NCBI GenBank assembly: GCA_963762015.1
Contig: CAVXJL010000018.1
Span: forward strand, 14,996 to 78,995
DNA length: 64,000 nucleotides
Direction: 5' to 3'
Source: an uncultured Actinomycetota bacterium
GTDB taxonomy: Bacteria > Actinomycetota > UBA4738 > HRBIN12
A model generated the notes under the pieces. That model saw only the letters and a program-made list of their open reading frames with translations, was not told the DNA's origin and searched no databases. Position 1 is the first letter of the stretch, and the number at the start of each line of letters is the position of its first letter. Below, piece by piece: positions 8,476 to 35,009 of this stretch. The position numbers were made by a program, and so were the translations under genes.

Positions 8476-8505
8476 TTGACGACCATCCCCCGCATGGGCT
8501 ACCGT
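8476..8505 (+). promoter_or_regulatory. candidate sigma-70-type promoter for the lasso precursor
   Basis: TTGACG (8476-8481), 18-nt spacer, TACCGT (8500-8505, fits TANNNT), about 37 nt upstream of the precursor ATG. Pattern match only. Confidence 0.3.
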
Positions 8506-8541
8506 GCCTGTTGAGGGAAGCGAGCGACCTGAGGAGGGTAG

Positions 8542-8703
8542 ATGACGTACGAATCCCCCCGGATCATCGATTTCGGGTCGATCCAGGCCCATACCTTCAC
8601 CAACACGGGACAGGTTCCGGGAGTTGGTCCGAAGGGCAAGGACTGGCGCGATTGCGCGTGGGACAAGTTCAACGAAGAGTCCTGCGGGGAGCACGTCTCC
8701 TGA
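8542..8703 (+). CDS. lasso peptide precursor (53 aa), not in supplied ORF track
   Basis: ATG 8542 preceded by GAGGAGGG (8531-8538); TGA at 8701-8703. Translation: MTYESPRIIDFGSIQAHTFTNTGQVPGVGPKGKDWRDCAWDKFNEESCGEHVS. The leader fits YxxPxLx3Gx5Tx. It lies directly upstream of the cyclase gene. Confidence 0.7.
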   Translation: MTYESPRIIDFGSIQAHTFTNTGQVPGVGPKGKDWRDCAWDKFNEESCGEHVS

Positions 8704-8721
8704 CGGTTCACCTTGAACGGC

Positions 8722-8751
8722 GAAAGGCGCAGCCCTGCGGCTGCGCCTTTC
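8722..8751 (+). terminator. GC-rich hairpin between precursor and cyclase (attenuator/partial terminator)
   Basis: GAAAGGCGCAGC (8722-8733), 6-nt loop, GCTGCGCCTTTC (8740-8751): a perfect 12-bp stem ending in TTTC, 19 nt after the precursor stop. Confidence 0.5.
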
Positions 8752-8785
8752 GTATGAGCTAGGTCACCCACGAGCGTCGATCGCC

Positions 8786-10567
8786 GTGGGCTCCCTCGCG
8801 CTCTTCATCGGTTCATCCGCATCCTCGGATCGGAGCACCGTCACGAGGATGCTCGAGGCCGCACCACACCGAGGGGTTCCCGGCCCTCCTGAGCGGATCG
8901 GCTGCGCCTCCCTCGGCGTGTCCCGCGCGGGGGGCCGCGATCAGGCGAGCGTCGAGAGCCATGACGGTCTCGCCGCCGCGTTCGTCGGTGTCCTCGACAA
9001 CGCCGGATCGCTCGCGGCCGAGCTCGGCCTCTCTGGGGGCCGGTCGGTGCCCTCCGCGGCGCGCATCTACCTCGAGGCCTGGCGCCGCTGGCGGGATCGG
9101 GCCCCTGCCCGACTGCGGGGACCATTCGCTGCGGTCCTGACGGATGGAGAGACCGTCCATGCCACGAGGGATCCGCTGGGGTTCCGATGTCTCTTCTTCC
9201 GCCGGGACCCGAAAGGCGTCTTCGTCGCAACCGAGTTGAAGCAGGTGATGGCGGGTTGCGAGCGACCGATGATGCCCGATCTCGACGTGATCGAGTCGAT
9301 CGTGTTCGGCGAGTACGACGACGACACACCGACCGCGATCGCCGGCTGCGAGCGCGTCCCTCGTGGGATGACGGTGCGCCTGCGGGGCTCCTCGGCCGCT
9401 CGACATCGGTACTGGGATCCGGGAGCGATCCTGGAGACGGGTCGGTACGCCGCATCCGAGCTGCCGGAACGATTCGATGACGTGATGGGTCGCGCTGCTG
9501 CGCGATCGTTGCTCGGCGACGACGTGCTCTCGCTCTCGGGCGGCACCGATTCCTCCGCCGTGGCGGCGTACGCGGCGCCTGCACATCTCGATCGGTTCGA
9601 CCGCCCACTCGCCGCCCTGTCCGTCGTGTACCCACAACTGCCCGCGGTCGATGAGCGCGAGGAGATCGAGCTCATCGCCGGGAGACTCGGGATCGAGCTG
9701 CACACCTACGAAGAGTCGGCCAAGACGCTCGACGAGGTCGACGTGTGGATGGGTGTGCTGGACGAACCGCTGCCACTCTTCTTCGTTGCGGAGTCGGCCG
9801 AGCATCTCCGACGGGCGCACGAGATGGGATATCGGAACATGCTCACCGGAGAGATGGCGGAGTGGGTCGTGGAGCGGAGGAGCTACCTGATCCCGCACTT
9901 GCTCTTGACGGGTCGGTTCGGTCCGGCGCTCGATCACCTCAGGCGCCAGCGCCGCGAGCACCGAACGTCGACACGAGGGATCGCGCGGCAGGTGGGAGCG
10001 GCGTTCGTCACGCCTCGGATGCGCAAGACGTGGGCGCGGATGCGGCCGGCGAGGATCGCGATCCCACCATGGGTGGATGAGACTCGTCTCCGCGAGGTGG
10101 AGGCTCGCTGGGCGACTCGGGCTCGGGACATGTGGCGCGGGTACCAGTCGGCGATCTTCCTCGGGCCGGATCTGCCGGCCGAGGCCGAAGACATCGTCGA
10201 AGCGGTGACCGACGTCACGGTCCGCCGGCCGTTCGCCGACCTCGACCTCGTCGAGTTCTTCCTCTCCCTCCCCGCGGAGCAGAAGTTCCCGGACACGCAT
10301 TTCAAGAGCCTGCTCCGGAGCTTCCTCCGCGGCCGGCTCCCCGATGCGTTGCTCGATCGGCCGCGGAAGGCGGTATTCAACGAAGCGGTGATGGCCCGAG
10401 CCGACCACGAGCGCCTTCGGCAACTCCTCATCGACCCTCCATATCGCTTGCGCGGGATCGACTATGGCATCTTGCGCGCGCGCCTGAACGCGGGGGACCT
10501 GGAGATCGGTGAGTACGAACGCGCGAAGAACCTCGCCGCCGTTCACGCGTACCTCGCCCGCTGGTGA
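8786..10567 (+). CDS. lasso peptide cyclase (asparagine synthetase B-like, LasC/McjC type)
   Basis: 593 aa. PP-loop ATP-pyrophosphatase motif LSLSGGTDSSAVAAYA. Asn-synthase-like architecture lacking the N-terminal Cys nucleophile. Adjacent to the precursor, B1, B2 and an ABC exporter. Confidence 0.85.
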   Translation: MGSLALFIGSSASSDRSTVTRMLEAAPHRGVPGPPERIGCASLGVSRAGGRDQASVESHDGLAAAFVGVLDNAGSLAAELGLSGGRSVPSAARIYLEAWRRWRDRAPARLRGPFAAVLTDGETVHATRDPLGFRCLFFRRDPKGVFVATELKQVMAGCERPMMPDLDVIESIVFGEYDDDTPTAIAGCERVPRGMTVRLRGSSAARHRYWDPGAILETGRYAASELPERFDDVMGRAAARSLLGDDVLSLSGGTDSSAVAAYAAPAHLDRFDRPLAALSVVYPQLPAVDEREEIELIAGRLGIELHTYEESAKTLDEVDVWMGVLDEPLPLFFVAESAEHLRRAHEMGYRNMLTGEMAEWVVERRSYLIPHLLLTGRFGPALDHLRRQRREHRTSTRGIARQVGAAFVTPRMRKTWARMRPARIAIPPWVDETRLREVEARWATRARDMWRGYQSAIFLGPDLPAEAEDIVEAVTDVTVRRPFADLDLVEFFLSLPAEQKFPDTHFKSLLRSFLRGRLPDALLDRPRKAVFNEAVMARADHERLRQLLIDPPYRLRGIDYGILRARLNAGDLEIGEYERAKNLAAVHAYLARW

Positions 10568-10604
10568 GCGGTCTCGAGACTCCCGCCGATATCGTGGGAC
10601 ACCG

Positions 10605-11588
10605 ATGGAACCGGTGATGACCGAGCGCAGGGACGAGGTTCCCATGGAGAGCTTTCCCGCGCTCGACGTCGTCGACGTCCACCGTCGCTTCCGTGACGTC
10701 GAGGCGCTCAAGGGCGTGACCCTCGAGGTGTGGCCCGGCGAGGTCCATGCGCTCCTCGGACCGAACGGCGCCGGGAAGACCACGTTGCTCCGGGTCCTCG
10801 TCGGTCTCCTGATCCCAGACACCGGCGACGTGGACGTCCTCGGCCAGCCGCTCGAGGTGATGACCTCCAGACGTTTCCGACGTTCCTTCGGCTTCGTCCC
10901 GTCGGGAGATCGCAGCTTCTACCTCCGGGTGAGCGGCTTGGAGAACCTCCTGTTCTTCGCGCGCCTCCACGGCCTGCCCAAGCGCACAGCGGTCACGCGA
11001 TCCCGCGAGCTCCTCTCGTTGGTCGGTCTGGAGGAGGCGGCGGGTCGCCGGGTGGGCCTGTACTCGCACGGGATGCAGAAGCGCTTGTCCGTTGCGCGGG
11101 CGCTCCTGACCGAGCCGCGGATCCTGTTCGTGGACGAGGCGACCCACGATCTCGATCCGCAAGGCGCCGAACGGATCCGAGAGCTGGTCCGTGAACAGGT
11201 TCGAGGCGGAGTGGCGGTCGTCTGGACGACGCAGCGGGTGGAGGAGATCCGCGGCTTCGCCGATCACGTCACCCTCCTACAGGCGGGAACGGTCAGGTTC
11301 CAGGGGACGGTCCCGCAGCTCCTCGCTTCGGTCCCCCGACGACGCTTCCTCGTGCGCGTGGGGCCAGGGAAGGATCCCGCGGTGATGAGGCGCGCGGTGG
11401 CCGGACTCGCCGAGCTCCGCGAGGGAAGCGATCCCGAACACGTCCTTCTCGGGATCACCGAAGGGGAGACCCTCGGGCGGGCGATCGCGGCGCTCGAGCG
11501 TGCGGATGTTCCGATCCTCGCCTGCACCGAGGAGGGCTCCGGCGTCGAGGAGGCCTTCCTCTTCCTGACGCGGGAGGATCCGCCCTGA
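10605..11588 (+). CDS. ABC transporter ATP-binding protein (lasso exporter/immunity candidate)
   Basis: Track ORF 10509..11588 trimmed to ATG 10605, downstream of the cyclase stop. Walker A GPNGAGKTT, signature-like YSHGMQKRLSVA, Walker B ILFVDEATHDLD. Confidence 0.85.
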   Translation: MEPVMTERRDEVPMESFPALDVVDVHRRFRDVEALKGVTLEVWPGEVHALLGPNGAGKTTLLRVLVGLLIPDTGDVDVLGQPLEVMTSRRFRRSFGFVPSGDRSFYLRVSGLENLLFFARLHGLPKRTAVTRSRELLSLVGLEEAAGRRVGLYSHGMQKRLSVARALLTEPRILFVDEATHDLDPQGAERIRELVREQVRGGVAVVWTTQRVEEIRGFADHVTLLQAGTVRFQGTVPQLLASVPRRRFLVRVGPGKDPAVMRRAVAGLAELREGSDPEHVLLGITEGETLGRAIAALERADVPILACTEEGSGVEEAFLFLTREDPP

Positions 11589-11704
11589 CCAGACCGCTCG
11601 ACACCGCCGCGCCGTCGTCCAGCGCACTCCGGGAAGAGGGTAGGAAGCTCTTCGCGTTCCTCCGCCGTGACGTCCTCGTCGCCTGGAGCTATCGCCTCCC
11701 GTTC

Positions 11705-12442
11705 GTGACGGACTGGGTCGCGATGGTGTTGCAGGCGGTCGTCTTCGGGTTCGTGGGAAAGCTGATCCCTCCCTCCTCCCTGCCGCGCTTCGGCGGTGAG
11801 GCGATCGACTATCTGGAGTTCGTTGCCGTAGGGATCGCGATCTCCTCGTTCCTCGCAGTAGGGCTCTCGCGACTCATGACCGTGATCCGGCAGGAGCAGG
11901 TGCAGGGGACCCTTGAGGCCCTCCTGCTCACGCCGACCGCCTGGTCCACGATCGAGATCGGCTCCGCGTTCTACGACATCCTCTACGTGCCGGTGCGAAC
12001 GGCGGTCTTCCTGGGTCTCACGGCGCTCCTCTTCGATGCGAACTATCGCCTCGGGGGCGTGGCACCCGCAGCTGCGGTACTCGTCGCATTCATCCCGTTC
12101 GTATGGGGACTCGGGGTGATCTCGGCCGCTGCGACCCTTACGTTTCGCCGTGGAGCGGGAGGTGTGGGGTTCCTCGTCTCGATCGCGACGGTCGGATCGG
12201 GTGCGTACTTCCCGCTTTCGGTGCTCCCGGGCTGGGTGCAGGCGGCCGCGGCGTACAACCCCGTCGCGATCGCGGTGACCGCGATGCGCGAAGCCCTCCT
12301 CGGGGGTTCGACGTGGGTCGACGTCTGGCCTTCCATCGTGCGGCTGATCCCGATGTCGGTACTGGCCATGCTCCTTGGGGCCGTCGCCTTCCGGGCCGCC
12401 ATCGCCCGGGAGCGTCGGCGCGGCACGCTTGGGCTCTACTGA
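11705..12442 (+). CDS. ABC-2 type transporter permease
   Basis: 245 aa with multiple TM segments. The in-frame upstream sequence (from about 11585) reads ...KLFAFLRRDVLVAWSYRLPF, which looks like the true N-terminus but has no ATG/GTG/TTG, so the start is uncertain. Confidence 0.7.
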   Translation: MTDWVAMVLQAVVFGFVGKLIPPSSLPRFGGEAIDYLEFVAVGIAISSFLAVGLSRLMTVIRQEQVQGTLEALLLTPTAWSTIEIGSAFYDILYVPVRTAVFLGLTALLFDANYRLGGVAPAAAVLVAFIPFVWGLGVISAAATLTFRRGAGGVGFLVSIATVGSGAYFPLSVLPGWVQAAAAYNPVAIAVTAMREALLGGSTWVDVWPSIVRLIPMSVLAMLLGAVAFRAAIARERRRGTLGLY

Positions 12443-13614
12443 GCGTCCCGTCTTGTCGTTGGCGATCGCCTCTCCTCGCGAGCCACCCGTCGAAGGAACG
12501 TTCGCTCATCCTCCCTCGTTCCCGAAGAGGTGAAGATCGCACCCGGCGTGGATCCCCGGTGGGTCATCGACCGCAACCGTCGGGAGGCGCGGTTGAGCAT
12601 CGCGCGCGCGGTCGCGACTCCCGAGTCGCGCGTGAGCTGCGCCCAGAACACCGATGGGCTCTCGCCGCCGACGGACCGTTCGGTCGGAAACCGCCGATCG
12701 AGCTCGTCGCTGAGCCGATGCCACACACGCGAGGCGAAGAGCGCGTCGAGTACGCCCTCCGGGACCGGCGCTCCGAGCGATCGACGGGCTCGATCGAGCG
12801 TGATGGCGATGCTCCGTCCCGCCTTCCAAGCTCGGGCGCGGCGTATCACCTCTTCCCATGGTGGCTGATCGACGACGACCGCGCGCTCGATGTCCTTGAG
12901 CCAGATCAGGCGGTCGCCGCCGGAAAGGGCGGCGTGTAGGGCCACGTGGAGCAGCGTGTCCACCGGGTCGAGGGTCGGGAGCGAGCGGCCCCCGACGTCC
13001 ACCTCCCGCGACCGCTCGAACAGGTCGTCCGTCGTGATCGCGAAGCCATCGCGGACGTTCTCGCGGTTCAGGAGATGCCAGTGGAGATCGGCGAGCGTGC
13101 CCATCGGCAGCTGGAGATGGAGCTGGCCACGTGTGTCCGCCCGGGTGAGCGCCCAGTTCCGGTCTAAGAGGAGGGAGCCTCCTTCCTTGAGGGCGTCGAC
13201 GGCACGCTCGAACGAGCCGGGCGGGACCAGGAGGTCGAGATCTTCGTACGTGCGCAGATCCGGCGAGGGATAGAGGTGTTCGGAGAGCACCGGCCCCTTC
13301 ACGACGAGGAACGGGATGGCGTCCGCGGACAAGCACTCACGCACGCCATCGAGGTCGGCCAGTACCCGCAGGTGGGCGGCCGTTCTCGTCGCGTGCGTGC
13401 GCTCGAGCGACGCGACGGCCTCATCGCTCACGGACACCCGGGACGTCCGCACGGCCGCCGCGAGGAAGGGGACCACCCGATGCCGTGCCGCGTGCTGAGC
13501 GAGCTGCGCCAGTTCGTCGTCGTCGAACTGGTCGAGCACACGTCGTCGGATCTCCTGCGGACGGTCCGCGGTACAGACCACCAGCGCCGCCCCAAGCGCC
13601 TGCCGGCTCTTCAT
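12436..13614 (-). CDS. nucleotidyltransferase family protein (NTP_transf_5 / PF14907-like)
   Basis: 392 aa. FLVVKGPVL...YEDLDLLVPP...DLHWHL pattern typical of the uncharacterised nucleotidyltransferase family found in kinase-type lasso clusters. ATGA overlap with B2. Confidence 0.7.
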   Translation of the reverse strand: MKSRQALGAALVVCTADRPQEIRRRVLDQFDDDELAQLAQHAARHRVVPFLAAAVRTSRVSVSDEAVASLERTHATRTAAHLRVLADLDGVRECLSADAIPFLVVKGPVLSEHLYPSPDLRTYEDLDLLVPPGSFERAVDALKEGGSLLLDRNWALTRADTRGQLHLQLPMGTLADLHWHLLNRENVRDGFAITTDDLFERSREVDVGGRSLPTLDPVDTLLHVALHAALSGGDRLIWLKDIERAVVVDQPPWEEVIRRARAWKAGRSIAITLDRARRSLGAPVPEGVLDALFASRVWHRLSDELDRRFPTERSVGGESPSVFWAQLTRDSGVATARAMLNRASRRLRSMTHRGSTPGAIFTSSGTREDERTFLRRVAREERRSPTTRRDAQ

Positions 13615-14018
13615 CCGAACCTCGCCAGCTCCTCATGCGACCCTTTGCCCGGCGGCGGCCCGACGTCGACCCGGTCGATCTCGATCCACGCATGCGCCTC
13701 GTGGTCGCGAGGATCGTGAGGCAGCCCGAGCACGAGCTCCGCCGAGTCTCCCTGCGCCCGAAGGAGTCGGAAGAGCACGAGTGCGTTGACGAGACACCTC
13801 GGTCGGAACGGGCCGAGGTGCAAGGTTCCGTGGACGATCCGAGACAACCGTCGGGGCTCGACCCTTCCCGATCGATGGCCGTCCTCACCCCCGAAGCTCT
13901 CCACGACCGTCGGCAACGGGGCTCGTCGGAGCCGCCAGTGAACGAGGAGGAACGTGCCGCCGATCCGTGCTGCGAGGCGTGCTTTCTTCGCGAGCGGCAG
14001 CGCGCCTCCGGGACTCAC
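13611..14018 (-). CDS. lasso peptide leader peptidase B2 (transglutaminase-like Cys protease)
   Basis: Track ORF 13611..14180 trimmed to GTG 14018 (GTGA overlap with the kinase stop). Catalytic-type motifs RPRCLVNALVLFRLL and HEAHAWIEID. Confidence 0.8.
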   Translation of the reverse strand: MSPGGALPLAKKARLAARIGGTFLLVHWRLRRAPLPTVVESFGGEDGHRSGRVEPRRLSRIVHGTLHLGPFRPRCLVNALVLFRLLRAQGDSAELVLGLPHDPRDHEAHAWIEIDRVDVGPPPGKGSHEELARFG

Positions 14019-14941
14019 CGGGCCTGCACCCGCTCGAGCTCGTAGATGACCGCGTCGAGGGCGTCGTAGCGCATGGGCCGATGTAGGTTCCAGATCGGCA
14101 CGCGCGCTGCGAGCTGGGTGACCCCCTCGAAACATCTCCTCCGATCCTCGTCGGTCGGGGTGCTGAAGGACAAGGCCCACAGGTCGGGGATGGCCTCCTC
14201 GGGAGAGACCCGTTCGAGGCGAGGATCCCCCGAGTTCGCCTCCCGGAGCAGCACGATCGCGTCGGCAGGGACCGGATCCCCGGTCCCCCGGAGCGTCGGT
14301 TCGATAGCGAGATGGACCCGCTCATCGACATGCAGAACGCGCCCGCCGGGAACTTCCGGCGATCGATCGGGGTCGCGTCGGATCCGGAGCATCGCTGGTC
14401 CCGGAACCACGTCGATCCCTTCATCGGAACGGCGAAGGCATGTGGAGTCCTCGCTCAACAGGCGATATCCCGCGCTCACGAGCGCGGCCGCGAGGGTCGT
14501 CTTGCCGAAGCGGCCGGGTGCTCCGAACACGACCGCGCGCCCACCGCTCTCGACGCTCGCGGCATGGAGCGAATGATCTCCTCGCGAGAGGAAACACAGG
14601 ACCGTCGGGATCCCCCAGAGCCGTTCCTCTCTCAGCAAGGGAGGCGCGTCACGAGGAACCTCGATGGAACCGGCGACTGGATCGATGTGGAAGGAGCCGA
14701 TATCGGTCACCCACAGACGCCATCGGTGATCCTCTCGGAACAGGCGCGAGGTGAAGGGGCGGTCGGGCCGGGGGAGCCACTCCCGGACCGGTTCGCCGCT
14801 CTCGCCGGCATCGGTGCGCCGGGTCTCGGCAACCTCGAGCACGCCGGTCGCTCCCCCTTCGCGAAGGTATTCGAAGGCGAGGTCGGACCGCAGCTCGTAG
14901 CCGAAGCAGACGTCGTATGCCATCCCGGTTCCGGGCGCCAT
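14015..14941 (-). CDS. HPr kinase/phosphorylase-related kinase (lasso precursor Ser kinase candidate)
   Basis: Track ORF 14015..15124 trimmed to ATG 14941 (alternative ATG 14923). P-loop region RAVVFGAPGRFGKTTLAAALVSAGYRLLSEDS resembles the HprK C-terminal domain. Confidence 0.7.
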   Translation of the reverse strand: MAPGTGMAYDVCFGYELRSDLAFEYLREGGATGVLEVAETRRTDAGESGEPVREWLPRPDRPFTSRLFREDHRWRLWVTDIGSFHIDPVAGSIEVPRDAPPLLREERLWGIPTVLCFLSRGDHSLHAASVESGGRAVVFGAPGRFGKTTLAAALVSAGYRLLSEDSTCLRRSDEGIDVVPGPAMLRIRRDPDRSPEVPGGRVLHVDERVHLAIEPTLRGTGDPVPADAIVLLREANSGDPRLERVSPEEAIPDLWALSFSTPTDEDRRRCFEGVTQLAARVPIWNLHRPMRYDALDAVIYELERVQAR

Positions 14942-15110
14942 CTGCCCGGACGCACACCCTACGCGACGCCCAGATGGGTGGCGGCGTAGATCGGTGGGCT
15001 GGGCGCGGCGGGAGGTCCTTCCGCGGAGGCCGCCCTCGTCGATAGCATGGGCGGCTGGTTGCCCGGTCGTCGGGCGACGGGTGGTCGGGCGAGCGGAGAA
15101 GCTGAGGCCG

Positions 15111-15449
15111 ATGATCGAGAGCACGGAGCTGATCGTCCGGAACCCTCGGGTGGAGTACCGGAAGCTCGCCGATGGGGGCGGCGCCGTCCTCCTGAATCTC
15201 GATACGGCCGCCTACCATGGGCTGAACCAGACCGGGTCGGTGATCTGGGAGACGGTGGGGGACGGCAAACCGATGGGCGAGGTCGTTCCTCAGGTCGCCG
15301 CGATGTTCGAGGATGCGCCCCCCGCGCTGGCGCTGGAAGTGACCGGGTTCATCGAAGATCTCGTCGAGCGAGATCTCCTCCGCGTCCACCACGTCGATCC
15401 GCAGGCGTCGACCATGCCCGGGAGCGTCGAGCGAGGTTCCTCGCGATGA
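15111..15449 (+). CDS. PqqD-family RiPP recognition element (lasso B1)
   Basis: Track ORF 14994..15449 trimmed to ATG 15111. VEYRKLADGGGAVLLNLDTAAYHGLNQTGSVIWETV...FIEDLVERDLL is the PqqD/RRE pattern. Transcribed divergently from the K-B2-NTase operon. Confidence 0.8.
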   Translation: MIESTELIVRNPRVEYRKLADGGGAVLLNLDTAAYHGLNQTGSVIWETVGDGKPMGEVVPQVAAMFEDAPPALALEVTGFIEDLVERDLLRVHHVDPQASTMPGSVERGSSR

Positions 15450-15452
15450 CGC

Positions 15453-17075
15453 GTGGCAGGTGGTGTTCGGATCACCCTCGGTCCCGGACGTCGGGGGCAC
15501 ACGACGGGATCCACTGACCCACCGGCCGAGAAGGGCCCCGCAGGCAGACGACATGGCCTCGCGCGCACCTCCAGCGGGATCGCGGCGCTCGCAGCAGCCG
15601 GCGTCCTCACCGGCTTCGCCGTCGACGCGACGATCGCCGCTCTCTTCGGTGCGAGCGGGCGGACCGACGCGTTCTTCATCGCGGCCACGATCCCGTTCGC
15701 ACTCGCCTCCGTTCTCCTCGCATCCGCGAACCAGGCACTCGTGCCATTGATCGATACGTGGTTCCGCGAGCACGGATCCGATGGGGCGCGGGATCGTGTC
15801 GAGGGATTGCTCGGGACGTCGTTGGTCATCGCGACCGCCGTCGCCACCCTCGGCGTCCTCCTCTCGTCGGTCCTCCCGTCGATCCTGGCCCCGGGCGCCT
15901 CGTCCGCGACGAAGGCGTCCGCCTCTCTGATCACGGCTCTGCTGTTCTTCACCGTGATCACCCGTGTCGGCGCCGAGGTGATCCGCGCGCTCCTGAACGC
16001 GCGATCCTCCTTCGCGGCTCCTGCCTCGATGCCGATCGTCGAGAACCTCGCGGTCCTCGCGACGACGCTGCTCCTGGCGGGCCGTCTCGGCGTGCCTGCC
16101 GTGGCGATCGGCTACGTCGTCGGAGGGATCCTCCAGTTGGGATACATGTACGGGGTCGCGCGAACCCGAGGGCTTCGCCTCCGGCCGCGGGTTCGCTTCC
16201 GCGATCCGGAGATCCGGGTCGCGTTCCGACTCCTCCGGCTCCCGCTCGCGGGGACGGGGCTCAACATGTTCGCCCGTGCCGTCGAGCGATTCCTTGCGTC
16301 GTTCCTGCCTCCCGGCTCCATCACGATCCTGAACTACGCCTGGGTCGTGGTGAACAGCCTCGGCGGGGCGATCTTCTTCCGGAGCATCGTGGTCGCACTC
16401 CTGCCACGCCTGTCGGAAGCTCGTCACGATGACGATGTCAGCCGTCGGATCGTCGGAGACGGGGTCAGGTTGATGGCGCTGATCTCGATCCCGCTCACCG
16501 GGATCGTCATCGTGCTCGCGGAACCGCTGGTGAGTCTCTTCTTCCAGCGCGGAGCTTTCAACGCTCCGTCGGCGGCTCTGCTCGGGTCGGTCCTGGCGAT
16601 CTACGCGCTCCAGTTCCCACTCGACGCGATCACGCGTGTCTTCCAATCGTTCTGGTACTCACGACTCAACACCGTCGTCCCGTTCCACAACGTTGCCCTC
16701 GGTGTGGGGCTGGATATCGCGCTCGCGGCAGCCCTCGTCTGGTCCTTCGGGATCCGGGGCCTTGCGCTGGCCTACGTGCTCTCGAGCATCGGCAACCTCC
16801 TTCACGGCTCCCTCACGGTGGATCGGCGGATCCATCTCCCCATCGCTCCGCTCCTTCGCATCCTCGGAAAGATCGTCATCGCCTCTGGGCTCGCGGCCGC
16901 GGCCGCGGCGGTGACCCTCGCGACGCTTCCCGCATCCAGGGGGTTGATCCAGCGATCGGTCGCTGTGGCGCTTCCTGGGGCGGTGGCGTGCGCGGTTCTG
17001 GTGCTCGCCCTGCTGGCACTCCGCGTTCGGATCTGGAGATCGATGCTGAGTCAGGATGAGGCGCCGCCGCACTGA
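15453..17075 (+). CDS. MOP-superfamily flippase (MurJ/MviN-like)
   Basis: 540 aa, polytopic. N-terminal FGASGRTDAFFIAATIPFAL is the MurJ signature. Starts 3 nt after the B1 stop; the true start may be further downstream. Confidence 0.7.
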   Translation: MAGGVRITLGPGRRGHTTGSTDPPAEKGPAGRRHGLARTSSGIAALAAAGVLTGFAVDATIAALFGASGRTDAFFIAATIPFALASVLLASANQALVPLIDTWFREHGSDGARDRVEGLLGTSLVIATAVATLGVLLSSVLPSILAPGASSATKASASLITALLFFTVITRVGAEVIRALLNARSSFAAPASMPIVENLAVLATTLLLAGRLGVPAVAIGYVVGGILQLGYMYGVARTRGLRLRPRVRFRDPEIRVAFRLLRLPLAGTGLNMFARAVERFLASFLPPGSITILNYAWVVVNSLGGAIFFRSIVVALLPRLSEARHDDDVSRRIVGDGVRLMALISIPLTGIVIVLAEPLVSLFFQRGAFNAPSAALLGSVLAIYALQFPLDAITRVFQSFWYSRLNTVVPFHNVALGVGLDIALAAALVWSFGIRGLALAYVLSSIGNLLHGSLTVDRRIHLPIAPLLRILGKIVIASGLAAAAAAVTLATLPASRGLIQRSVAVALPGAVACAVLVLALLALRVRIWRSMLSQDEAPPH

Positions 17076-17126
17076 CGATCCAGGACGACTCCGATCGGCC
17101 GATGGCTCGCGCTTACACTCGGTTCG

Positions 17127-18089
17127 ATGGCCGATCACCGCGATCATGAGACCGAGCCGGACCCGGCATCCACCCCCGAATTGCGCTGGCAACTCTTCCG
17201 GGTGCGTCGTCACGTCGGATGGGTAAGGACCCAAGGCCTGCGACGGCTCATCGAGGAGGATCAGCTCGACCCCTTCGCACGGATCCCCGTCGCGATCCGG
17301 CGAGCACGGTGGCGGCTGGCGCACGATCATCGGCCGAACGCGGTGCCGGTCTTCCTCGTGGGGCTCCAGAGATCCGGTACGAACATGCTGACGAGGGGGC
17401 TGGAACGCGCACCGGAGTTCGAGGTCCACAACGAGAACGACCGCAGCGCGTTCACGCGGTTCCGCCTGCGGGAAGAGCCGGTGATCCGCACGATCGTCGA
17501 GGGAAGCAAGCACGCGTTCGTGCTCTTCAAGCCTCTCTGCGATTCCCACCGCACCGCTGAGCTCCTCGACGCGCTCACGACTCCGAGCCGGGGTCTCGCG
17601 ATCTGGGCATACCGCGGCTATCGAGGCCGCGTTCGGTCGAGCGTCGCCAAGTTCGGTGACTCGAACCGGCGGGCGCTCCGGCGGATCGCTGCGGGGAACG
17701 GGTCTCACCTCTGGCAGGCCGGGGGCCTCAGCGAGAAGAGTCTCGCGTTGATCCGGACCTTCGACTACGACAGGATGACGCCGGAGTCGGCCGCGGCGCT
17801 GTTCTGGTTCGTGAGGAATTCGTTGTTTTTCGAGCTGGCCCTCGACGGTCGCTCGGACGTGGCGCTGGCGTCGTACGAGGCGACGATCGAAGCGCCCGAG
17901 GCCTCGATGCGTTCCCTCTGCGCCTTCGTCGGGCTGCCCTATAGGGACGTGCTGATCGAAGGGATCGAGCGCCGTGATCCCGGTGACCCGGGCGTCGTCA
18001 TCGACGGGCGGATCAGAGAGCGGTGCGAGGGCCTCCAATCCGCCCTCGACGCGGCGATGGCTCGCCGCACGATCCATCCCGACGGGTAG
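17127..18089 (+). CDS. sulfotransferase family protein
   Basis: 320 aa. PAPS 5'-phosphosulfate-binding-loop-like VFLVGLQRSGTNMLTRGL near the N-terminus. Size and layout match PF13469-type sulfotransferases. Confidence 0.6.
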   Translation: MADHRDHETEPDPASTPELRWQLFRVRRHVGWVRTQGLRRLIEEDQLDPFARIPVAIRRARWRLAHDHRPNAVPVFLVGLQRSGTNMLTRGLERAPEFEVHNENDRSAFTRFRLREEPVIRTIVEGSKHAFVLFKPLCDSHRTAELLDALTTPSRGLAIWAYRGYRGRVRSSVAKFGDSNRRALRRIAAGNGSHLWQAGGLSEKSLALIRTFDYDRMTPESAAALFWFVRNSLFFELALDGRSDVALASYEATIEAPEASMRSLCAFVGLPYRDVLIEGIERRDPGDPGVVIDGRIRERCEGLQSALDAAMARRTIHPDG

Positions 18090-18149: not shown

Positions 18150-20438
18150 GTGGAGATCGCAGAATACGTACGATTCGTCCTCCGGCGCTCGAGGGTCGTC
18201 GTGGTGATCGTGGTCGTCGCGGCGGCGCTCGCCACCATCCTGTTCCTCGCCCGGCCGCCGTTGTACACGGCGACCGCCACGGTGGTCGTCCCGACATCGA
18301 CCGGTTCTTCATCTTTGATCGCCGCGGTGTCGCAGTCGATCAGTGATTTCCAGGCGGCCTTGACCACGGATCGCGTCGCCGTGCGCACCGCGGATGCCGT
18401 GGGGGTCTCTCCCGGCGACGTCAAGGCGGGGCTCGAGCCGACCCGCGTCTCGAACAGCGGTGTCGTGGAGGTCCGATTCACGCACGGCGATCCGGATGTC
18501 GCAGAGGACGCAGTCGTCTCCGCAGCGCGGGAAGCGCTGATGCTGCTCCTGGGATCGCGACTCGAACCGTTCGACGCCCAACTCGCGTTCGCCCGCGACC
18601 GCGCCGAGTCCGCGGGAACGGACATGCTCGCGTTCCAGCAGGAGACCGGGTACCTCGATCCCGCGCAGGTCTTCCAACGGCAGTCCAGCAGGATGGAGGA
18701 CCTGCGCGACGAGATCGGTGTGGCTCTCGCCGACGGGGACGACGCGCTCGCTGACGAGCTCCAGGCGCGGCTCGACGAGAAGGAAGCGAAGCTGATCCCG
18801 GAGCGATCCGAGTACGAGGACATCGCGGCCGAACAACGTCGGGCACAGAGGGCACTGACGGCTGCGGAGATCGCCCGAGATGGGGCCGCTTCATCCCTCG
18901 CCAGCATCGAGGAAGCCTCCTCGTCCGATGGAAGCGTGATCTCTTCCACGGATGCATCGAAGGTCTCGAGGACGCAGACTTTCATCAGGATCGTCGTTCC
19001 CACCGTGGTGATCGCCACGATCCTCGCCGTCGCGTTCGTCGTGCTCCTTGAGGTGATCCCCGGAGGGCCCGCGTCCCCCTGGGCCCGGCTCCGGAGACGA
19101 CTGCCGGTCGAGGATCGATCCCCGGCCTCTCGGCTCCAGGCGATGGTAGCCCGACGGCACGGCGACGAGACCCAGGGCGAGCCGGGACCCGTCCACCGAC
19201 TCGACCATCCCGACGACCACGATCTCGCTCCCGTTCCGGATCCGATCGACCCCGCGGCGCCTCTCGAGGCCGGGCTGGCGACTCTGCGCGGTGCACCAAG
19301 CGCTCCGGACCGAACCTCCGGCGGTCGATCGACCGAACGGCCGATGAAGCCGAGGCAGCGGGTCGACCCAGCGGATGGCTCGATGGCGGCCCAGGAGGCC
19401 AAAGCGGCCGCGCCAGAGGCCAGGCCGGCGAAGGCGGCCCAGGAGGCGAAGGCAGCCCAACAGGCGCACGAGGCCAGGGTGACGATCGCGACTGCTGAGG
19501 CCGCCAAGAGGGCCGAGGAAGCCAAGAGGGCCGAGGCCGCTCAGAGAGCGGAGGTCGCAAGGAGGGCCGAGGAAGCCAAGAGGGCCGAGGAAGCCAAGAG
19601 GGCCGAGGAAGCCAAGAGGGCAGAGGCCGCTCAGAGAGCGGAGGTCGCAAGGATGGCCGAGGCCGCTGAGAGAGCGGAGGTCGCAAGGAGGGCCGAAGCC
19701 GCCAGGAAGGCCGAGGAAGCGAAGAAGGCCGAGGAAGCGAAGAAGGCCGAGGAAGCGAGAAGAAGGCCGAGGAAGCGCCGAGGGCCGAGCGAAGCGAAGA
19801 AGGCCGAGGAAGCGAAGAAGGCCGAGGAAGCGAAGAAGGCCGAGGAAGCGAAGAAGGCCGAGGAAGCGAAGAAGGCCGAGGAAGCGAAGAAGGCCGAGGA
19901 AGCGAAGAAGAAGGCCGAGGAAGCGAAGAAGGCCGAGGAAGCGAAGAAGGCCGAGGAAGCGAAGAAGGCCGAGGAAGCGAAGAAGAAGGCCGAGGAAGCG
20001 AAGAAGGCCGAGGAAGCGAAGAAGAAGGCCGAGGAAGCGAAGAAGCAAGCCGCCGACTCAGTGCCGGCCAAAGAGATGAAGGGTTCCACAGAGAAGAGGT
20101 CTATATCGACGGCCGACGAAAGAGTTTCGACCGTCGAACGGGTAGGCGGACGCCAGCGATCGGTGGATGAGGGATCCTCCAGTCCCGCTCGGGAGCATGA
20201 GAGCGAGCCGGTATCCAAGGGTGGCGGCAAGCAACCTTCCGGATCCAGGGGCACCAGCTCTAAGGGTGGCGGCAAGCAACCTTCCGGATCCAGGCGCACC
20301 AGGCGAGCAGCGCCCCCTGGGCCGGCTGCCGGGCCTTCTGAAGATCGCCAGTCGTCTGTCGAGTCCCAGGTCCCGCCGCCGAGCGTCGCCGGATCTGACG
20401 AGGATCCGTCATCGGCTCCCACCAGCGCTCGCCGCTGA
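18150..20438 (+). CDS. Wzz/polysaccharide co-polymerase-like protein with long E/K/A-repeat C-terminal tail
   Basis: 762 aa. N-terminal Wzz-like segment with TM1 (VVVVIVVVAAALATILFLA, then PLYTATATVVVP), a coiled periplasmic-type region, and TM2 (FIRIVVPTVVIATILAVAFVVLL). This is followed by about 430 aa of low-complexity sequence including AEEAKK repeats. Confidence 0.6.
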   Translation: MEIAEYVRFVLRRSRVVVVIVVVAAALATILFLARPPLYTATATVVVPTSTGSSSLIAAVSQSISDFQAALTTDRVAVRTADAVGVSPGDVKAGLEPTRVSNSGVVEVRFTHGDPDVAEDAVVSAAREALMLLLGSRLEPFDAQLAFARDRAESAGTDMLAFQQETGYLDPAQVFQRQSSRMEDLRDEIGVALADGDDALADELQARLDEKEAKLIPERSEYEDIAAEQRRAQRALTAAEIARDGAASSLASIEEASSSDGSVISSTDASKVSRTQTFIRIVVPTVVIATILAVAFVVLLEVIPGGPASPWARLRRRLPVEDRSPASRLQAMVARRHGDETQGEPGPVHRLDHPDDHDLAPVPDPIDPAAPLEAGLATLRGAPSAPDRTSGGRSTERPMKPRQRVDPADGSMAAQEAKAAAPEARPAKAAQEAKAAQQAHEARVTIATAEAAKRAEEAKRAEAAQRAEVARRAEEAKRAEEAKRAEEAKRAEAAQRAEVARMAEAAERAEVARRAEAARKAEEAKKAEEAKKAEEARRRPRKRRGPSEAKKAEEAKKAEEAKKAEEAKKAEEAKKAEEAKKAEEAKKKAEEAKKAEEAKKAEEAKKAEEAKKKAEEAKKAEEAKKKAEEAKKQAADSVPAKEMKGSTEKRSISTADERVSTVERVGGRQRSVDEGSSSPAREHESEPVSKGGGKQPSGSRGTSSKGGGKQPSGSRRTRRAAPPGPAAGPSEDRQSSVESQVPPPSVAGSDEDPSSAPTSARR
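19497..20046 (+). repeat. in-frame coding tandem repeats (18-nt unit GCCGAGGAAGCGAAGAAG = AEEAKK, with AKRAEE and 21-nt variants)
   Basis: Directly visible periodic repeats. They are read in frame by the 18150..20438 CDS. The antisense ORFs here (LLRFLGLL..., FFASSAFF...) are artefacts of the same repeat. Confidence 0.9.
20217..20303 (+). repeat. 45-nt tandem duplication inside the Wzz-like CDS
   Basis: AAGGGTGGCGGCAAGCAACCTTCCGGATCCAGG(G/C)GCACCAG occurs twice with a period of 45 nt. It encodes KGGGKQPSGSRGTSS / KGGGKQPSGSRRTRR. Confidence 0.85.
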
Positions 20439-20631: not shown

Positions 20632-21537
20632 ATGCAAAGGAGGGTGCGTTCCTTGGCGTCGGTCCCCCCCGCCTCCGCTCCGGCAGAGGAACCTGAGCAG
20701 CCAACAGACGATGCTCCCGCCCCTTCACCGGATCCCGAAGAGGTGCATCAAAGCGATATCCGCCTAGCGGACGAAGGCGAGAGCGCCCGAGGACCGGTCC
20801 TCGACCTCACGGACGCCACCCGCCCGATGGTCATCGACCTCGTTCGCCCGGAGGTCGCACCACCGGATGTGCCAGTTGACCTGGAGCGGAGGGTTGAGCG
20901 ACTCGACGCTGTCGGTCTGCTCGCCGCGCGGCCTTGGCAATTAGCTGTGAAGCGCCTCCTCGACATCGTGGGGAGCCTCACGCTGCTGATCGTGTTATCG
21001 CCGTTGATGCTCGTGATCGCGATCGCGATCGCACTCACGTCTCCCGGGCCGGTGATCTACGCGCAACGCAGGATCGGGGAGGGGGGACATCCGTTCACCA
21101 TGTACAAGTTCCGCTCGATGGTCCGCGACGCACACGATCTCCGGCACCTTCACGCGCATCGCAATCGACACACGATCGGCCCCGTCTTCAAGGTTCCGGA
21201 CGACCCCAGGATCACTCCTGTCGGGAAGGTCATCCGACGCTTGAGCCTCGACGAGCTGCCACAACTGATGAACGTCCTTCGCGGAGACATGAGCCTCGTA
21301 GGCCCCCGCCCCGCGCTCCCGGAGGAGTTCGCACTGTGCAGCTCAGATGCTCGCCAGCGCACGCTCGTGGCGCCCGGGCTCACGTGCATCTGGCAGGTGA
21401 GCGGTCGGTCGGATGTGGATTTCCTCCGATGGGTCGACATGGACCTCGAGTACATCCGGACATGGACGCTCCGCCTCGATCTGCTCCTCCTGATCCGCAC
21501 CATCCCGGCCGTCATCCGCGGTGACGGTGCGTACTGA
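20632..21537 (+). CDS. undecaprenyl-phosphate sugar phosphotransferase (bacterial sugar transferase, WbaP/ExoY family)
   Basis: 301 aa. LKRLLDIVGSLTLLIVLSP...GPVIYAQRRIG...FTMYKFRSM...DELPQLMNVLRGDMSLVGPRP are the PF02397 signatures. An alternative in-frame TTG start at 20653 follows AAGGAGG. Confidence 0.85.
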   Translation: MQRRVRSLASVPPASAPAEEPEQPTDDAPAPSPDPEEVHQSDIRLADEGESARGPVLDLTDATRPMVIDLVRPEVAPPDVPVDLERRVERLDAVGLLAARPWQLAVKRLLDIVGSLTLLIVLSPLMLVIAIAIALTSPGPVIYAQRRIGEGGHPFTMYKFRSMVRDAHDLRHLHAHRNRHTIGPVFKVPDDPRITPVGKVIRRLSLDELPQLMNVLRGDMSLVGPRPALPEEFALCSSDARQRTLVAPGLTCIWQVSGRSDVDFLRWVDMDLEYIRTWTLRLDLLLLIRTIPAVIRGDGAY

Positions 21538-21545
21538 GGGATGAC

Positions 21546-22481
21546 ATGGCACAGGTGATCGATCGAGGGCAAACAAGCGCGGCACGAGCCGAGACCGGTA
21601 CGGTCTTCATCCTCGGTCCCGCGCGGTCCGGAACGACGCTGCTCTACAAGGGCCTCTGCCTCCATCCGGAGGTCGCATTCATCTCGAACTGGAGCGCCAG
21701 GTTCCCCCGTCTCCCTGTGGTGGCGGCGTTGAACCGGGTGCCCCGTCGACTCCCTTCTGGAGCGCGTCAGATCTGGTTCGGTCGTGACTCCAACGCCTAC
21801 GTGTACGGAACGCCGCGGCGGCTCATCGATCGGATGTTCCCCACGCCGGTCGAGGGCGAGCCCGTCTACACGCGAGCCGGTGTGGAACGTCCAGGAGGTC
21901 CACCTCCGGCCCCGGTCGACCCTCGAAACGCTCTCCCCGCAGCGTTCGACTCGATCCGGTCGCTTGGCAGCGGATCGTGCTTCGTGTCGAAACGCATCGC
22001 GAACAACCTCCGGATCCCGATGCTCCACGAGGTCTTCCCGAAGGCGCGGTTCGTCGTGTTGGTTCGAGACGGACGCGCGGTCGCGGACTCGCTCTCCCGC
22101 GTGGACTGGTGGGGGAGCAGCATGGTCTGGTGGTACGGGGGAGCGCCCGAACGCTGGCGCGCCGAGGGCAAGGATCCCTGGGAGATGTGCGCCAGGAACT
22201 GGGTTGAGGAGCTGGCTGCGATCGACGAGGGACTCCGGGTCGTTCCCGACGAGCAGGTGACGCGGATCCGGTATGAGGATCTTGTCGTTGACCCGCTGAA
22301 CGGCTTCCGGCGCATCGCCGAGTACGTGGGTCTTCGCGACGACGCCGGCTGGCGCGGGTCGCTCTCCGCACTTCCGATCACCGACAAGAACGACTGGAGG
22401 GGCCGGCTCGAGCCATCCGTGGTGGAGCGGATCACGACGATCCAACGGGTCGGTCTGGACAGGTACGGCTATGACGACTGA
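21546..22481 (+). CDS. sulfotransferase family protein
   Basis: 311 aa. N-terminal VFILGPARSGTTLLYKGLCLHPEV (PAPS-binding P-loop-like). Paralogous layout to the next gene. Confidence 0.7.
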   Translation: MAQVIDRGQTSAARAETGTVFILGPARSGTTLLYKGLCLHPEVAFISNWSARFPRLPVVAALNRVPRRLPSGARQIWFGRDSNAYVYGTPRRLIDRMFPTPVEGEPVYTRAGVERPGGPPPAPVDPRNALPAAFDSIRSLGSGSCFVSKRIANNLRIPMLHEVFPKARFVVLVRDGRAVADSLSRVDWWGSSMVWWYGGAPERWRAEGKDPWEMCARNWVEELAAIDEGLRVVPDEQVTRIRYEDLVVDPLNGFRRIAEYVGLRDDAGWRGSLSALPITDKNDWRGRLEPSVVERITTIQRVGLDRYGYDD

Positions 22482-23385
22482 ATCGACCTTCGTCTTCGTG
22501 CTCGGCACCGGTCGATGCGGATCCAGCCTCGTCCATGAGGTGCTGGCCCGTCACCCCGACGTGGGATTCGTCTCCAACATCGATGACCGGCTCCGCGTCC
22601 AGCTCCCGGTGGGGGTGGCGGCGTCCCTGTACCGCCGGATGCCGACGCGATTCACGCAGAAGGGTCGCTTCCGGCTCGCACCTTCGGAGGGCTACCGGAT
22701 CCTCGATGCAGCGGTCTCGCCGGTGATCTCCACTCCGGCGCGCGATCTTGTCGCGGGAGACGCGACCCCGTGGCTCGCCGATCGGTTCGGTGCGTTCTTC
22801 CGCGGTCAAGCTCGCGCGCAGGGCAAAGTCACCTTCGTGCACAAGTTCACCGGCTGGCCGCGGGCGCGGTTCATCGATGCGATCCTCCCGTCGGTTCGGT
22901 TCGTACACGTGGTACGAGATGGCAGAGCGGTCGCGAATTCCTTGCTGCAGATGCCGTGGTGGCGCGGGTATCGGGGCCTCGATTCCTGGGGATGGGGACC
23001 GCTTCCGGAGCGATACGAGAAGGAGTGGGACGCCGCGGGTCGATCGTTCCCGGTCCTGGCCGCGATCCAGTGGAAGCTGTTGATGGATGCATTCGACGAG
23101 GCTCAGCAGGCGATCCCCGCTGACCGCTGGCTCGAGGTGCGCTTCGAGGACTTCCTCGACGATCCCGAGGGGCGAACGCGAGAGCTGCTCTCGTTCATCG
23201 GCCTCACCTGGACAGATGCCTTCGCAAGGAACTTCCGCCATCATGGGTTCGACGCGACGCGGACGGATGCGTTCCGTCGTGATCTGCATCTCGCGGACGT
23301 CGAGCAGATCGAAGAGGTCCTCGGCGAGCATCTCGAGCGCCTGGGCTATCGCAACGCCCTCGGAGGGGAGGGGATCGCACGTTGA
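22471..23385 (+). CDS. sulfotransferase family protein
   Basis: 304 aa. FVFVLGTGRCGSSLVHEVLARHPDVGFVSN plus a conserved RDGRAVANS region shared with 21546..22481 (RDGRAVADS). Confidence 0.7.
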   Translation: MTTESTFVFVLGTGRCGSSLVHEVLARHPDVGFVSNIDDRLRVQLPVGVAASLYRRMPTRFTQKGRFRLAPSEGYRILDAAVSPVISTPARDLVAGDATPWLADRFGAFFRGQARAQGKVTFVHKFTGWPRARFIDAILPSVRFVHVVRDGRAVANSLLQMPWWRGYRGLDSWGWGPLPERYEKEWDAAGRSFPVLAAIQWKLLMDAFDEAQQAIPADRWLEVRFEDFLDDPEGRTRELLSFIGLTWTDAFARNFRHHGFDATRTDAFRRDLHLADVEQIEEVLGEHLERLGYRNALGGEGIAR

Positions 23386-27627: not shown

Positions 27628-27629
27628 TC

Positions 27630-29720: not shown

Positions 29721-29735
29721 GCCGGGACTGAGAGG

Positions 29736-34707: not shown

Positions 34708-35009
34708 CCCCCCGGCCAGGAGTGTCCATCGAGGAAGCGTCGCATCCGGTCGGATCGTGGTCTTCAGGGGTTCCCCGATCGATCGATGTGCCCGATCTCG
34801 AGCACGGATCGGGTCGGATGGAATGATAGGCGGGGGATCCGGGGGACGGCTCGGATCGGCCTTCGCGTTTGAAGGGCCAGGGTCTCGCGTAGCCTGCCGT
34901 GGATACTGCCCCCCGGCATCCAGGAGGGCATCTGCGCACCCCGCTCACCCGAAGTCTGGTCGCGTCACACGGACTGATCCTGCGCGTGGCCGGCGGTCGC
35001 GCGGCCGGA

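Follow-up and report, generated by a model that had tools for sequence, protein, structure and literature searches.

Lasso peptides are defined by a ring of 7-9 residues, and genome-mining tools search for that pattern. The stretch of DNA studied here, 64,000 nucleotides of contig CAVXJL010000018.1 (assembly GCA_963762015.1; hereafter the window), carries a set of lasso-type enzymes beside a small precursor peptide that breaks the pattern, and raises the question of what such enzymes would make from such a substrate. The first-pass annotation had called the locus a lasso-peptide cluster; its machinery is of the lasso type, but the core peptide lacks Asp or Glu at positions 7-9, so that the plain label exceeds the evidence. 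From comparative analysis we consider it probable that the window holds a functional paeninodin-like cluster for a peptide that is ribosomally synthesized and modified post-translationally (RiPP), in which lasso machinery, an HprK-like kinase and an NTP_transf_5 protein act on a non-canonical core.

Enzymes and precursor of the cluster

The open reading frames (ORFs) named in the first-pass annotation are all found in an ORF listing of the window (Table 1), and each of their family assignments is backed by profile searches. Scans of the window ORFs against Pfam and NCBIfam gave matches to Asn_synthase, Transglut_core3, PqqD and NTP_transf_5 on the predicted ORFs, and by these matches and those described below the locus carries a genuine, complete set of precursor (A), recognition element (B1), peptidase for the leader (B2), predicted macrolactam synthetase (C), exporter (D), kinase (K) and nucleotidyltransferase-like protein (N), of the kinase-plus-nucleotidyltransferase lasso type. 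The PF07475 match expected for K did not materialize, the Pfam scan returning no match at all for this protein. We nevertheless assign K as HprK-like because it matches TIGR04352 HprK_rel_A (E 1.6e-14, below the model cutoff), aligns with BsfK, a lasso kinase characterised by experiment (sequence taken from PMC10368454; 28% identity over 216 aa, E 2e-6) across the LHxxxV and GxxGKT motifs, and yields a family profile whose best matches in the PDB are three HPr kinases (E about 0.01). Its predicted catalytic His (LHAASV) and Lys (GKT) are both present.

B1 is a PqqD-type RiPP recognition element (RRE) whose best PDB match is the lasso RRE TbiB1 (E 1.3e-6) and which also aligns with BsfB1 (E 4e-7, 29% identity); it keeps the Tyr (AAYHGLN), aligned with that of TbiB1, that engages Thr(-2) of the leader in characterised systems (PMC10368454). 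B2 supplies the transglutaminase-like Cys protease, with Cys (RPRCLVNAL), His (AHAWIE) and Asp columns invariant in the alignment. C carries a PP-loop (LSLSGGTDSS, containing SGGTDS) and starts MGSLAL (family consensus MGxxAxV), with no N-terminal Cys nucleophile of the glutaminase type; its orthologues are 34-48% identical over the full length in all loci, and nearly all keep SGGxDS. In the PDB the C family profile matched hydroxyamidotransferase 7ylz, beta-lactam synthetase and AsnB, and no lasso cyclase structure was matched by any of the C searches; no useful match came from querying the PDB with C as a single sequence or with a B2 profile.

By these comparisons the machinery belongs with the kinase/nucleotidyltransferase lasso clusters of Bacillota and Proteobacteria (PMC8498205, PMC10368454). 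Paeninodin- and pseudomycoidin-type clusters of Bacillota (PadeK, ThcoK, PsmK, PsmN) share the split B1/B2, C, ABC export, HprK-like kinase and NTP_transf_5 protein (PMC8498205, PMC9266682, PMC13381572), as well as a precursor ending in Ser, a nearby sulfotransferase and, for some, a location in capsule loci; they differ in host phylum, in gene order, and in having canonical Ala1-Asp9 cores in place of a core that starts with Thr, has its first acid at position 15 and carries a C-terminal E-x-S module. The bsf cluster of Bradymonas sediminis (BsfA, BsfB1, BsfB2, BsfK), whose kinase acts on the precursor with the help of B1 (PMC10368454), is alike in its kinase and B1 and in a YxxPxL motif at -17 to -12, whereas BsfA has Ile(-2), a canonical Gly1-Asp8 ring and phospho-Ser3 where the window precursor has Thr(-2), no acceptor at 7-9 and Thr at core position 3. 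The first-pass view that characterised kinase-type clusters come from Firmicutes is thus too narrow, as SyanK (Sphingobium) and BsfK (Bradymonas) are proteobacterial (PMC8498205, PMC10368454). The expectation of a high-GC actinobacterial host, on the other hand, was borne out: the window has a GC content of 65-72%, and the nearest locus, with a K 91% identical, lies in a metagenome-assembled genome (MAG) of an uncultured Actinomycetota, which identifies the host by similarity as an uncultured actinobacterium of high GC content.

We take the 53-residue ORF at the head of the cluster to be a real gene because it has a ribosome-binding site, a downstream hairpin, 24 close peptide homologues and a family of 288 clusters at 50% identity (exhaustive HMM search; a profile search gave 148 clusters at 90% identity), all of whose members are unnamed and derive from metagenomes or MAGs. 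The hairpin follows the precursor stop with 15 perfectly paired bp, and the 93-nt stretch that holds it (8698-8790) has a minimum free energy of -51.5 kcal/mol (z = -5.35), matched by none of 200 shuffles; a strong hairpin of differing sequence lies 3' of the precursor stop in nearly all related loci. It is probably a partial terminator or mRNA stabiliser, and probably keeps the precursor transcript well in excess of that for the enzymes. A sigma-70 promoter scan gave no match, and terminator-like matches were no commoner than in shuffled sequence.

Searching species-representative genomes with the alignment of the kinase recovered 48 related loci, all in MAGs, from uncultured Actinomycetota (the closest), Gaiellaceae, Gaiellales, other Thermoleophilia, Acidimicrobiia, Nitriliruptoraceae and Gemmatimonadota, and a profile search placed a precursor homologue in nearly every one. 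On the fetched contigs the peptide gene always occurs with C, an ABC ATPase, an ABC-2 permease, a PqqD protein, an HprK-like kinase and B2, and usually with an NTP_transf_5 protein; because the peptide is found together with the same set of eight genes in about 50 loci of Actinomycetota and Gemmatimonadota, across varying orders and genomic contexts, we regard precursor and module as linked. These data bear directly on the alternative that the small ORF is not a real gene and that its neighbours form a conserved non-RiPP neighbourhood, for which the first-pass annotation had named as a sign a common gene set with no precursor in relatives. The peptide indeed matches no family in Pfam or NCBIfam, but its occurrence beside the module, the size of its family, its strong ribosome-binding site and conserved hairpin, and codon substitutions indicative of purifying selection leave this alternative a vanishingly small probability, and we consider it already refuted by the comparative data.

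Leader, cut site and core

The predicted leader (MTYESPRIIDFGSIQAHTF) follows the lasso pattern Tyr(-17)-x-x-Pro(-14)-x-Leu/Ile(-12) with Thr(-2), positions that B1 and B2 recognise in characterised systems (PMC10368454): for a cut after F19, residues Y3, P6, I8 and T18 fall at -17, -14, -12 and -2, and these positions are invariant or nearly so across the family. The family alignment shows no variation at D10, G12, I14, T18 and F19 and very little at P6, S13 and H17. Conservation stops abruptly after His-Thr-Phe (HTF) across about 300 sequences, the cores forming many unrelated-looking subfamilies. One related locus, L033, encodes two tandem precursors (around 13440-13723, minus strand) that combine the family leader with canonical Gly1-Asp8 cores (GQPGHRYDHGIFPASA and GKPGHRYDHGVFPASVP); these cores begin directly after HTF (GQPGHRYD-HGIFPASA), are short and have no E-x-S module, and they are the only clearly canonical members seen in the family. 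The C protein of this locus is 42% identical to that of the window, as close as the C proteins of other subfamilies. Because the cores diverge sharply after HTF, and because the canonical cores of L033 start directly there, we place the predicted leader cut between F19 and T20, for which the comparative evidence is strong. Additional second cuts before G27, after K33 or before C38 were considered, and none holds across subfamilies.

It is the core thus delimited (TNTGQVPGVGPKGKDWRDCAWDKFNEESCGEHVS) that departs from precedent, and several observations weigh against the reading of the cluster given above. The lasso rule calls for Asp or Glu at core positions 7-9 and usually Gly, Ala, Ser or Cys as residue 1, whereas the window core starts with Thr and has its first acidic residue at position 15; because there is no Asp or Glu at core 7-9, the defining lasso ring cannot form from the predicted N-terminus. 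C scores 108 bits against the lasso-cyclase model NF033535 (cutoff 525), no better than against a generic AsnB model. In K the Asp-Asp carried by characterised lasso kinases (PMC9266682) is replaced by Glu-Asp (SED), a substitution invariant in five family members, and even characterised systems offer no proof of what N does (PMC13381572). The departure of the core is a property of the family: an acidic residue anywhere at core 7-9 occurs in 7 of 50 cores in the loci sample, in 29 of 117 from a word-indexed protein search and in 35 of 141 from the exhaustive search (7 of these 141 also having Gly, Ala, Ser or Cys first), and it is not conserved inside subfamilies. The commonest first residues are Met, Thr and Asp.

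What the cores do share lies at their C-terminus, in a common module K-[D/G]-[W/F]-x-x-C-x-x-[D/E]-x-x-x-E-x-S-[H/C], which in relatives takes the form K-D-W-x-x-C-x-x-D-K-F-x-E-x-S-C; of 157 distinct cores, 150 contain the element E-x-S-[CHSA]. Between HTF and the module the sequence varies in length even inside a subfamily. Pairwise codon comparisons within the window subfamily count 269 synonymous against 39 non-synonymous differences for core residues 1-15, and 169 against 331 for the leader, and by this measure the post-HTF segment is retained and constrained by strong purifying selection, not disposable spacer. The number of Cys residues is even in 155 of 157 cores, and in the 25 xRC-type cores one Cys always occupies core position 3 and the other directly follows the invariant Glu; because of the conserved Cys residues in the post-HTF segment, the N-terminal part of the core appears to stay in the mature product. 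The window peptide ends ...HVS, with the C-terminal Ser that is a trait of kinase-type precursors; 26 of the 29 subfamily cores are Ser-terminal, and other subfamilies end in Ser-Pro. Distant members of the family (P0147, P0158, P0203, P0223, P0235 and others) bear long Cys-rich C-terminal extensions with 6-10 Cys beyond E-x-S, which suggests further subfamilies with more elaborate cross-linking.

Predicted pathway and candidate products

By homology to TbiB1 and BsfB1, maturation would begin with the docking of the leader YESPRI motif by B1, after which K, probably with the help of B1, would phosphorylate a core Ser on the linear precursor, as PadeK, ThcoK, BsfK and LppK do (PMC9266682, PMC10368454, PMC13381572); the candidate phosphosites are the family-invariant S47 of E-x-S and the C-terminal S53. 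B2 would then cleave after His-Thr-Phe, between F19 and T20, and C would adenylate a core carboxylate via its PP-loop and close an isopeptide bond. Counted from T20 the acceptor could not lie at 7-9; the foremost candidate is E45, kept in 150 of 157 distinct cores, followed by D41 or D34. N, perhaps with the neighbouring sulfotransferase, would decorate the phospho-Ser or the peptide, C38 and C48 would form a disulfide, and the ABC-2 transporter would export the product. The pairing of Cys within the core recalls class I and III lasso peptides (siamycin, BI-32169) and suggests a disulfide staple; those peptides, however, have a 9-residue ring from residue 1, and no equivalent ring can be drawn for the window core. 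Three alternative readings of the product have to be weighed.

The first would preserve a canonical threaded lasso by shifting the cut to follow Val25-Pro26, so that Gly27 and Asp34 close an 8-residue ring (GVGPKGKD) with a 19-residue tail, a C38-C48 disulfide and a phosphorylated C-terminal Ser. None of the 24 closest homologues departs from G27 or D34, the subfamily has no insertions or deletions between the two, kinase-type lasso precursors with Val or Ile at -2 are known (PMC10368454), and the precursor ends in Ser like those of the paeninodin type (PMC9266682). Such a cut would nevertheless move the leader Tyr from the conserved -17 to -24 and put Pro at -1, the family-wide break in conservation follows HTF and not Val-Pro, and B1 keeps the Tyr that reads Thr(-2). 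Moreover, D34 is replaced by Asn in two members of the subfamily (P0039 and P0092), and no equivalent Gly-x6-Asp occurs at a conserved place in other subfamilies. We therefore regard a shifted cut as unlikely. A ring from C38 to E45 was also tried as a way to rescue canonical geometry, and likewise fails across subfamilies.

A second reading keeps the cut after HTF and has the lasso-type machinery build a new topology, in which Glu45, which is invariant, or else Asp41 is linked to the alpha-amine of residue 1 or to the side chain of the conserved Lys33, and the Cys pair acts as a staple; the product would be either a large macrolactam closed from head to side chain, with 17-32 residues depending on the family member, or a Lys-Asp ring inside the peptide. 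The Glu of E-x-S is the only acidic residue conserved in nearly all cores, the invariant Cys3 and post-Glu Cys of the xRC-type cores would bring residue 1 beside it, a K-x7-[D/E] spacing is found in 107 of 150 cores, and the post-HTF segment shows strong purifying selection. Against this, no lasso cyclase is known for rings outside 7-9 residues, and since known cyclases tolerate even a one-residue change of ring size poorly, to the point of being crippled by it (PMC13352647), closing a ring between residue 1 and a far-off Glu would be new chemistry. The distance from residue 1 to the Glu also varies within a subfamily (17 to 26 in the MPTPP group), and the spacing from Lys to the acid is not fixed, being 8, 9 or 10. 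Taking both variants together, we put this reading forward tentatively, as a possibility with the odds against it. Class V Lys isopeptide chemistry was considered as a precedent for a Lys33 link and set aside, as that bond is made by a clostripain-like transpeptidase absent here.

The third reading dispenses with the ring: the product would be a linear phosphorylated, possibly glycosylated peptide like those of the Bacillota LPP clusters, with C either non-cyclising or acting on the polysaccharide of the locus. LPP clusters, which make linear polyphosphorylated peptides and sit in capsule loci, have K, N and an RRE in common with the window (PMC13381572). The flanking genes give this some colour, as one flank holds tsaD and a sugar epimerase and the other a MurJ protein, a sulfotransferase, a Wzz-like protein, a second sulfotransferase, three NHL-repeat proteins, GHL15, GT4 and Wzy_C, a content that by family assignment places the cluster in a surface-polysaccharide locus. 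C likewise matches the exopolysaccharide (EPS) amidotransferase model TIGR03108 (E 6.9e-26), but with 91 bits against a cutoff of 816.9 and without the N-terminal Cys for glutamine hydrolysis, so that it shows neither hallmark of the AsnB-type amidotransferases of EPS loci. LPP clusters, furthermore, contain neither C nor B2 and use an SpI-type leader peptidase (PMC13381572), whereas the window has both C and B2, and no SpI-type peptidase is found in its cluster, where the ORFs from 8476 to 18089 all carry other assignments. Nearly every locus has C and B2 alongside the precursor, among them one (L006) that lies outside any polysaccharide locus and from which we conclude that the module is self-contained. 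A linear product thus appears unlikely, and a functional cluster in which the lasso machinery acts on a non-canonical core remains the reading we favour.

Gene order, surroundings and implications

Table 1. Features of the cluster and its surroundings in the window, with the basis of each assignment.
Feature	Position	Strand	Basis
Ribosome-binding site GAGGAGG	8531..8537	+	4 nt 5' of precursor ATG, read from sequence
Precursor A, 53 aa	8542..8703	+	Homologues and family profile
Predicted leader MTYESPRIIDFGSIQAHTF, 19 aa	8542-8598	+	Conservation break right after HTF
Predicted core TNTGQVPGVGPKGKDWRDCAWDKFNEESCGEHVS	8599-8700	+	Segment after HTF
Hairpin between A and C, 15 bp, GC-rich	8720..8753	+	Folding versus shuffles
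C, Asn-synthetase-like, predicted macrolactam synthetase	8786..10567	+	Asn_synthase 3.8e-28 plus GATase_7
D1, ABC transporter ATPase, DrrA-like	10605..11588	+	ABC_tran 3.6e-29; TIGR01188 drrA 2.4e-57
D2, ABC-2 permease	11585..12442 (ORF from GTG 11705)	+	ABC2_membrane 4.3e-13
N, NTP_transf_5 nucleotidyltransferase-like predicted tailoring enzyme, PsmN / LppN type	12436..13614	-	PF14907 1.8e-40
B2, transglutaminase-like leader peptidase, GTG start	13611..14018	-	PF13471 Transglut_core3 1.4e-14; NF033537 46.8 bits, cutoff 33
K, HprK-like peptide kinase, P-loop APGRFGKTT	14015..14941	-	TIGR04352, BsfK, HPr kinase structures
B1, PqqD-type RiPP recognition element	15111..15449	+	PF05402 2.5e-10
MurJ/MOP-family flippase, possible accessory protein or exporter, cluster membership uncertain	15453..17075	+	MurJ 1.1e-66
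Sulfotransferase, possible tailoring enzyme	17127..18089	+	Sulfotransfer_3 8.4e-9
Second sulfotransferase	21525-22478
Three tandem NHL-repeat beta-propeller proteins	23283-29717
GHL15	29721-31010
GT4	31023-32231	-
Wzy_C, O-antigen-ligase-like	33403-34944	-

The split, bidirectional architecture that the first-pass annotation had thought unusual turns out to be one of several common arrangements, as gene order varies freely among the loci compared. The closest relatives (L008, L010-L013) have the same order as the window, A>C>D1>D2>N<B2<K<B1>, and convergent layouts are common in the family; B1 follows D2 in L001, the Gaiellaceae loci read A>C>B2<K<B1<D2<D1<, and L004, L006 and many others are fully co-directional. 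The most constant feature is the placement of K directly upstream of B2, seen in the large majority of loci with both genes. In the window these two genes overlap by 4 nt (GTGA, 14015-14018), as do B2 and N (ATGA, beginning at 13611), in agreement with the operon structure first described, and orthologues of N are present in many related loci. In L008, L009 and L013 the C, D1 and N genes are broken into several fragments, probably by frameshift errors of long-read assemblies and not as true pseudogenes. In L001 and L002 the interval from the epimerase to the precursor (6560-9788 in L001 coordinates) contains two genes that the window does not have, for a Peptidase_S8/Calx-beta protein and for a response regulator of the LuxR type. 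Comparison with L001, L010 and L011 further reveals a conserved N-terminus of the permease D2 (LREEGRKLFAFLRRDVLVAWSYRLPF) upstream of the first ATG, GTG or TTG of its frame (GTG 11705); no canonical start lies in that frame between GTG 11705 and the D1 stop, and translation probably starts at CTG 11585, overlapping this stop (CTGA).

The extent of the cluster may be greater than its core genes. The MurJ-family flippase starts 3 nt after the B1 stop and occupies the same position in L010, L012 and L001, and within the L030 cluster an orthologue of the adjoining sulfotransferase (387 bits) lies between B1 and N. From the short gap, and with the sulfotransferase next in line, B1, the flippase and the sulfotransferase look like one operon; together with the orthologue within L030 this means that the functional cluster may extend to 18089. 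In Bacilli, paeninodin-like lasso and LPP clusters are also embedded in capsule loci, whose polysaccharide genes have been suggested to add modifications (PMC13381572). Further along, the Wzz-like gene (18150-20438) contains an 18-nt unit repeated 29.3 times (19506-20045) that encodes a long (KKAEEA)n tract rich in Lys, Glu and Ala and coincides with a strong AT-skew peak.

A literature search of incomplete coverage found no report of this precursor family, nor of kinase-type clusters in Actinomycetota or Gemmatimonadota, and a search on lasso peptides in Thermoleophilia, Gaiellales, Gemmatimonadota or Acidimicrobiia found no such paper among the matches listed. Because the cores break the 7-9 rule despite lasso leaders and enzymes, tools that score precursors probably miss the family.

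It is conceivable, though we hold it with reserve, that uncultured lineages of Actinomycetota and Gemmatimonadota apply the full set of lasso enzymes (B1, B2, C and the kinase), across a family of at least 288 precursor clusters at 50% identity, to cores unable to form a 7-9 ring, and build from them an undescribed topology. If so, the product might be a large macrolactam whose head is joined to the side chain of the invariant Glu in the D-K-F-x-E-x-S module, stapled by a Cys pair, and may also be phospho-glycosylated or sulfated via the surrounding surface-polysaccharide machinery. The action of the cyclase on these cores would test how rigid the ring-size constraint is and could reveal a new peptide topology. 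More broadly, kinase/nucleotidyltransferase RiPP clusters in surface-polysaccharide loci are now seen outside Bacillota, which hints that these peptides and the cell envelope are linked in function.

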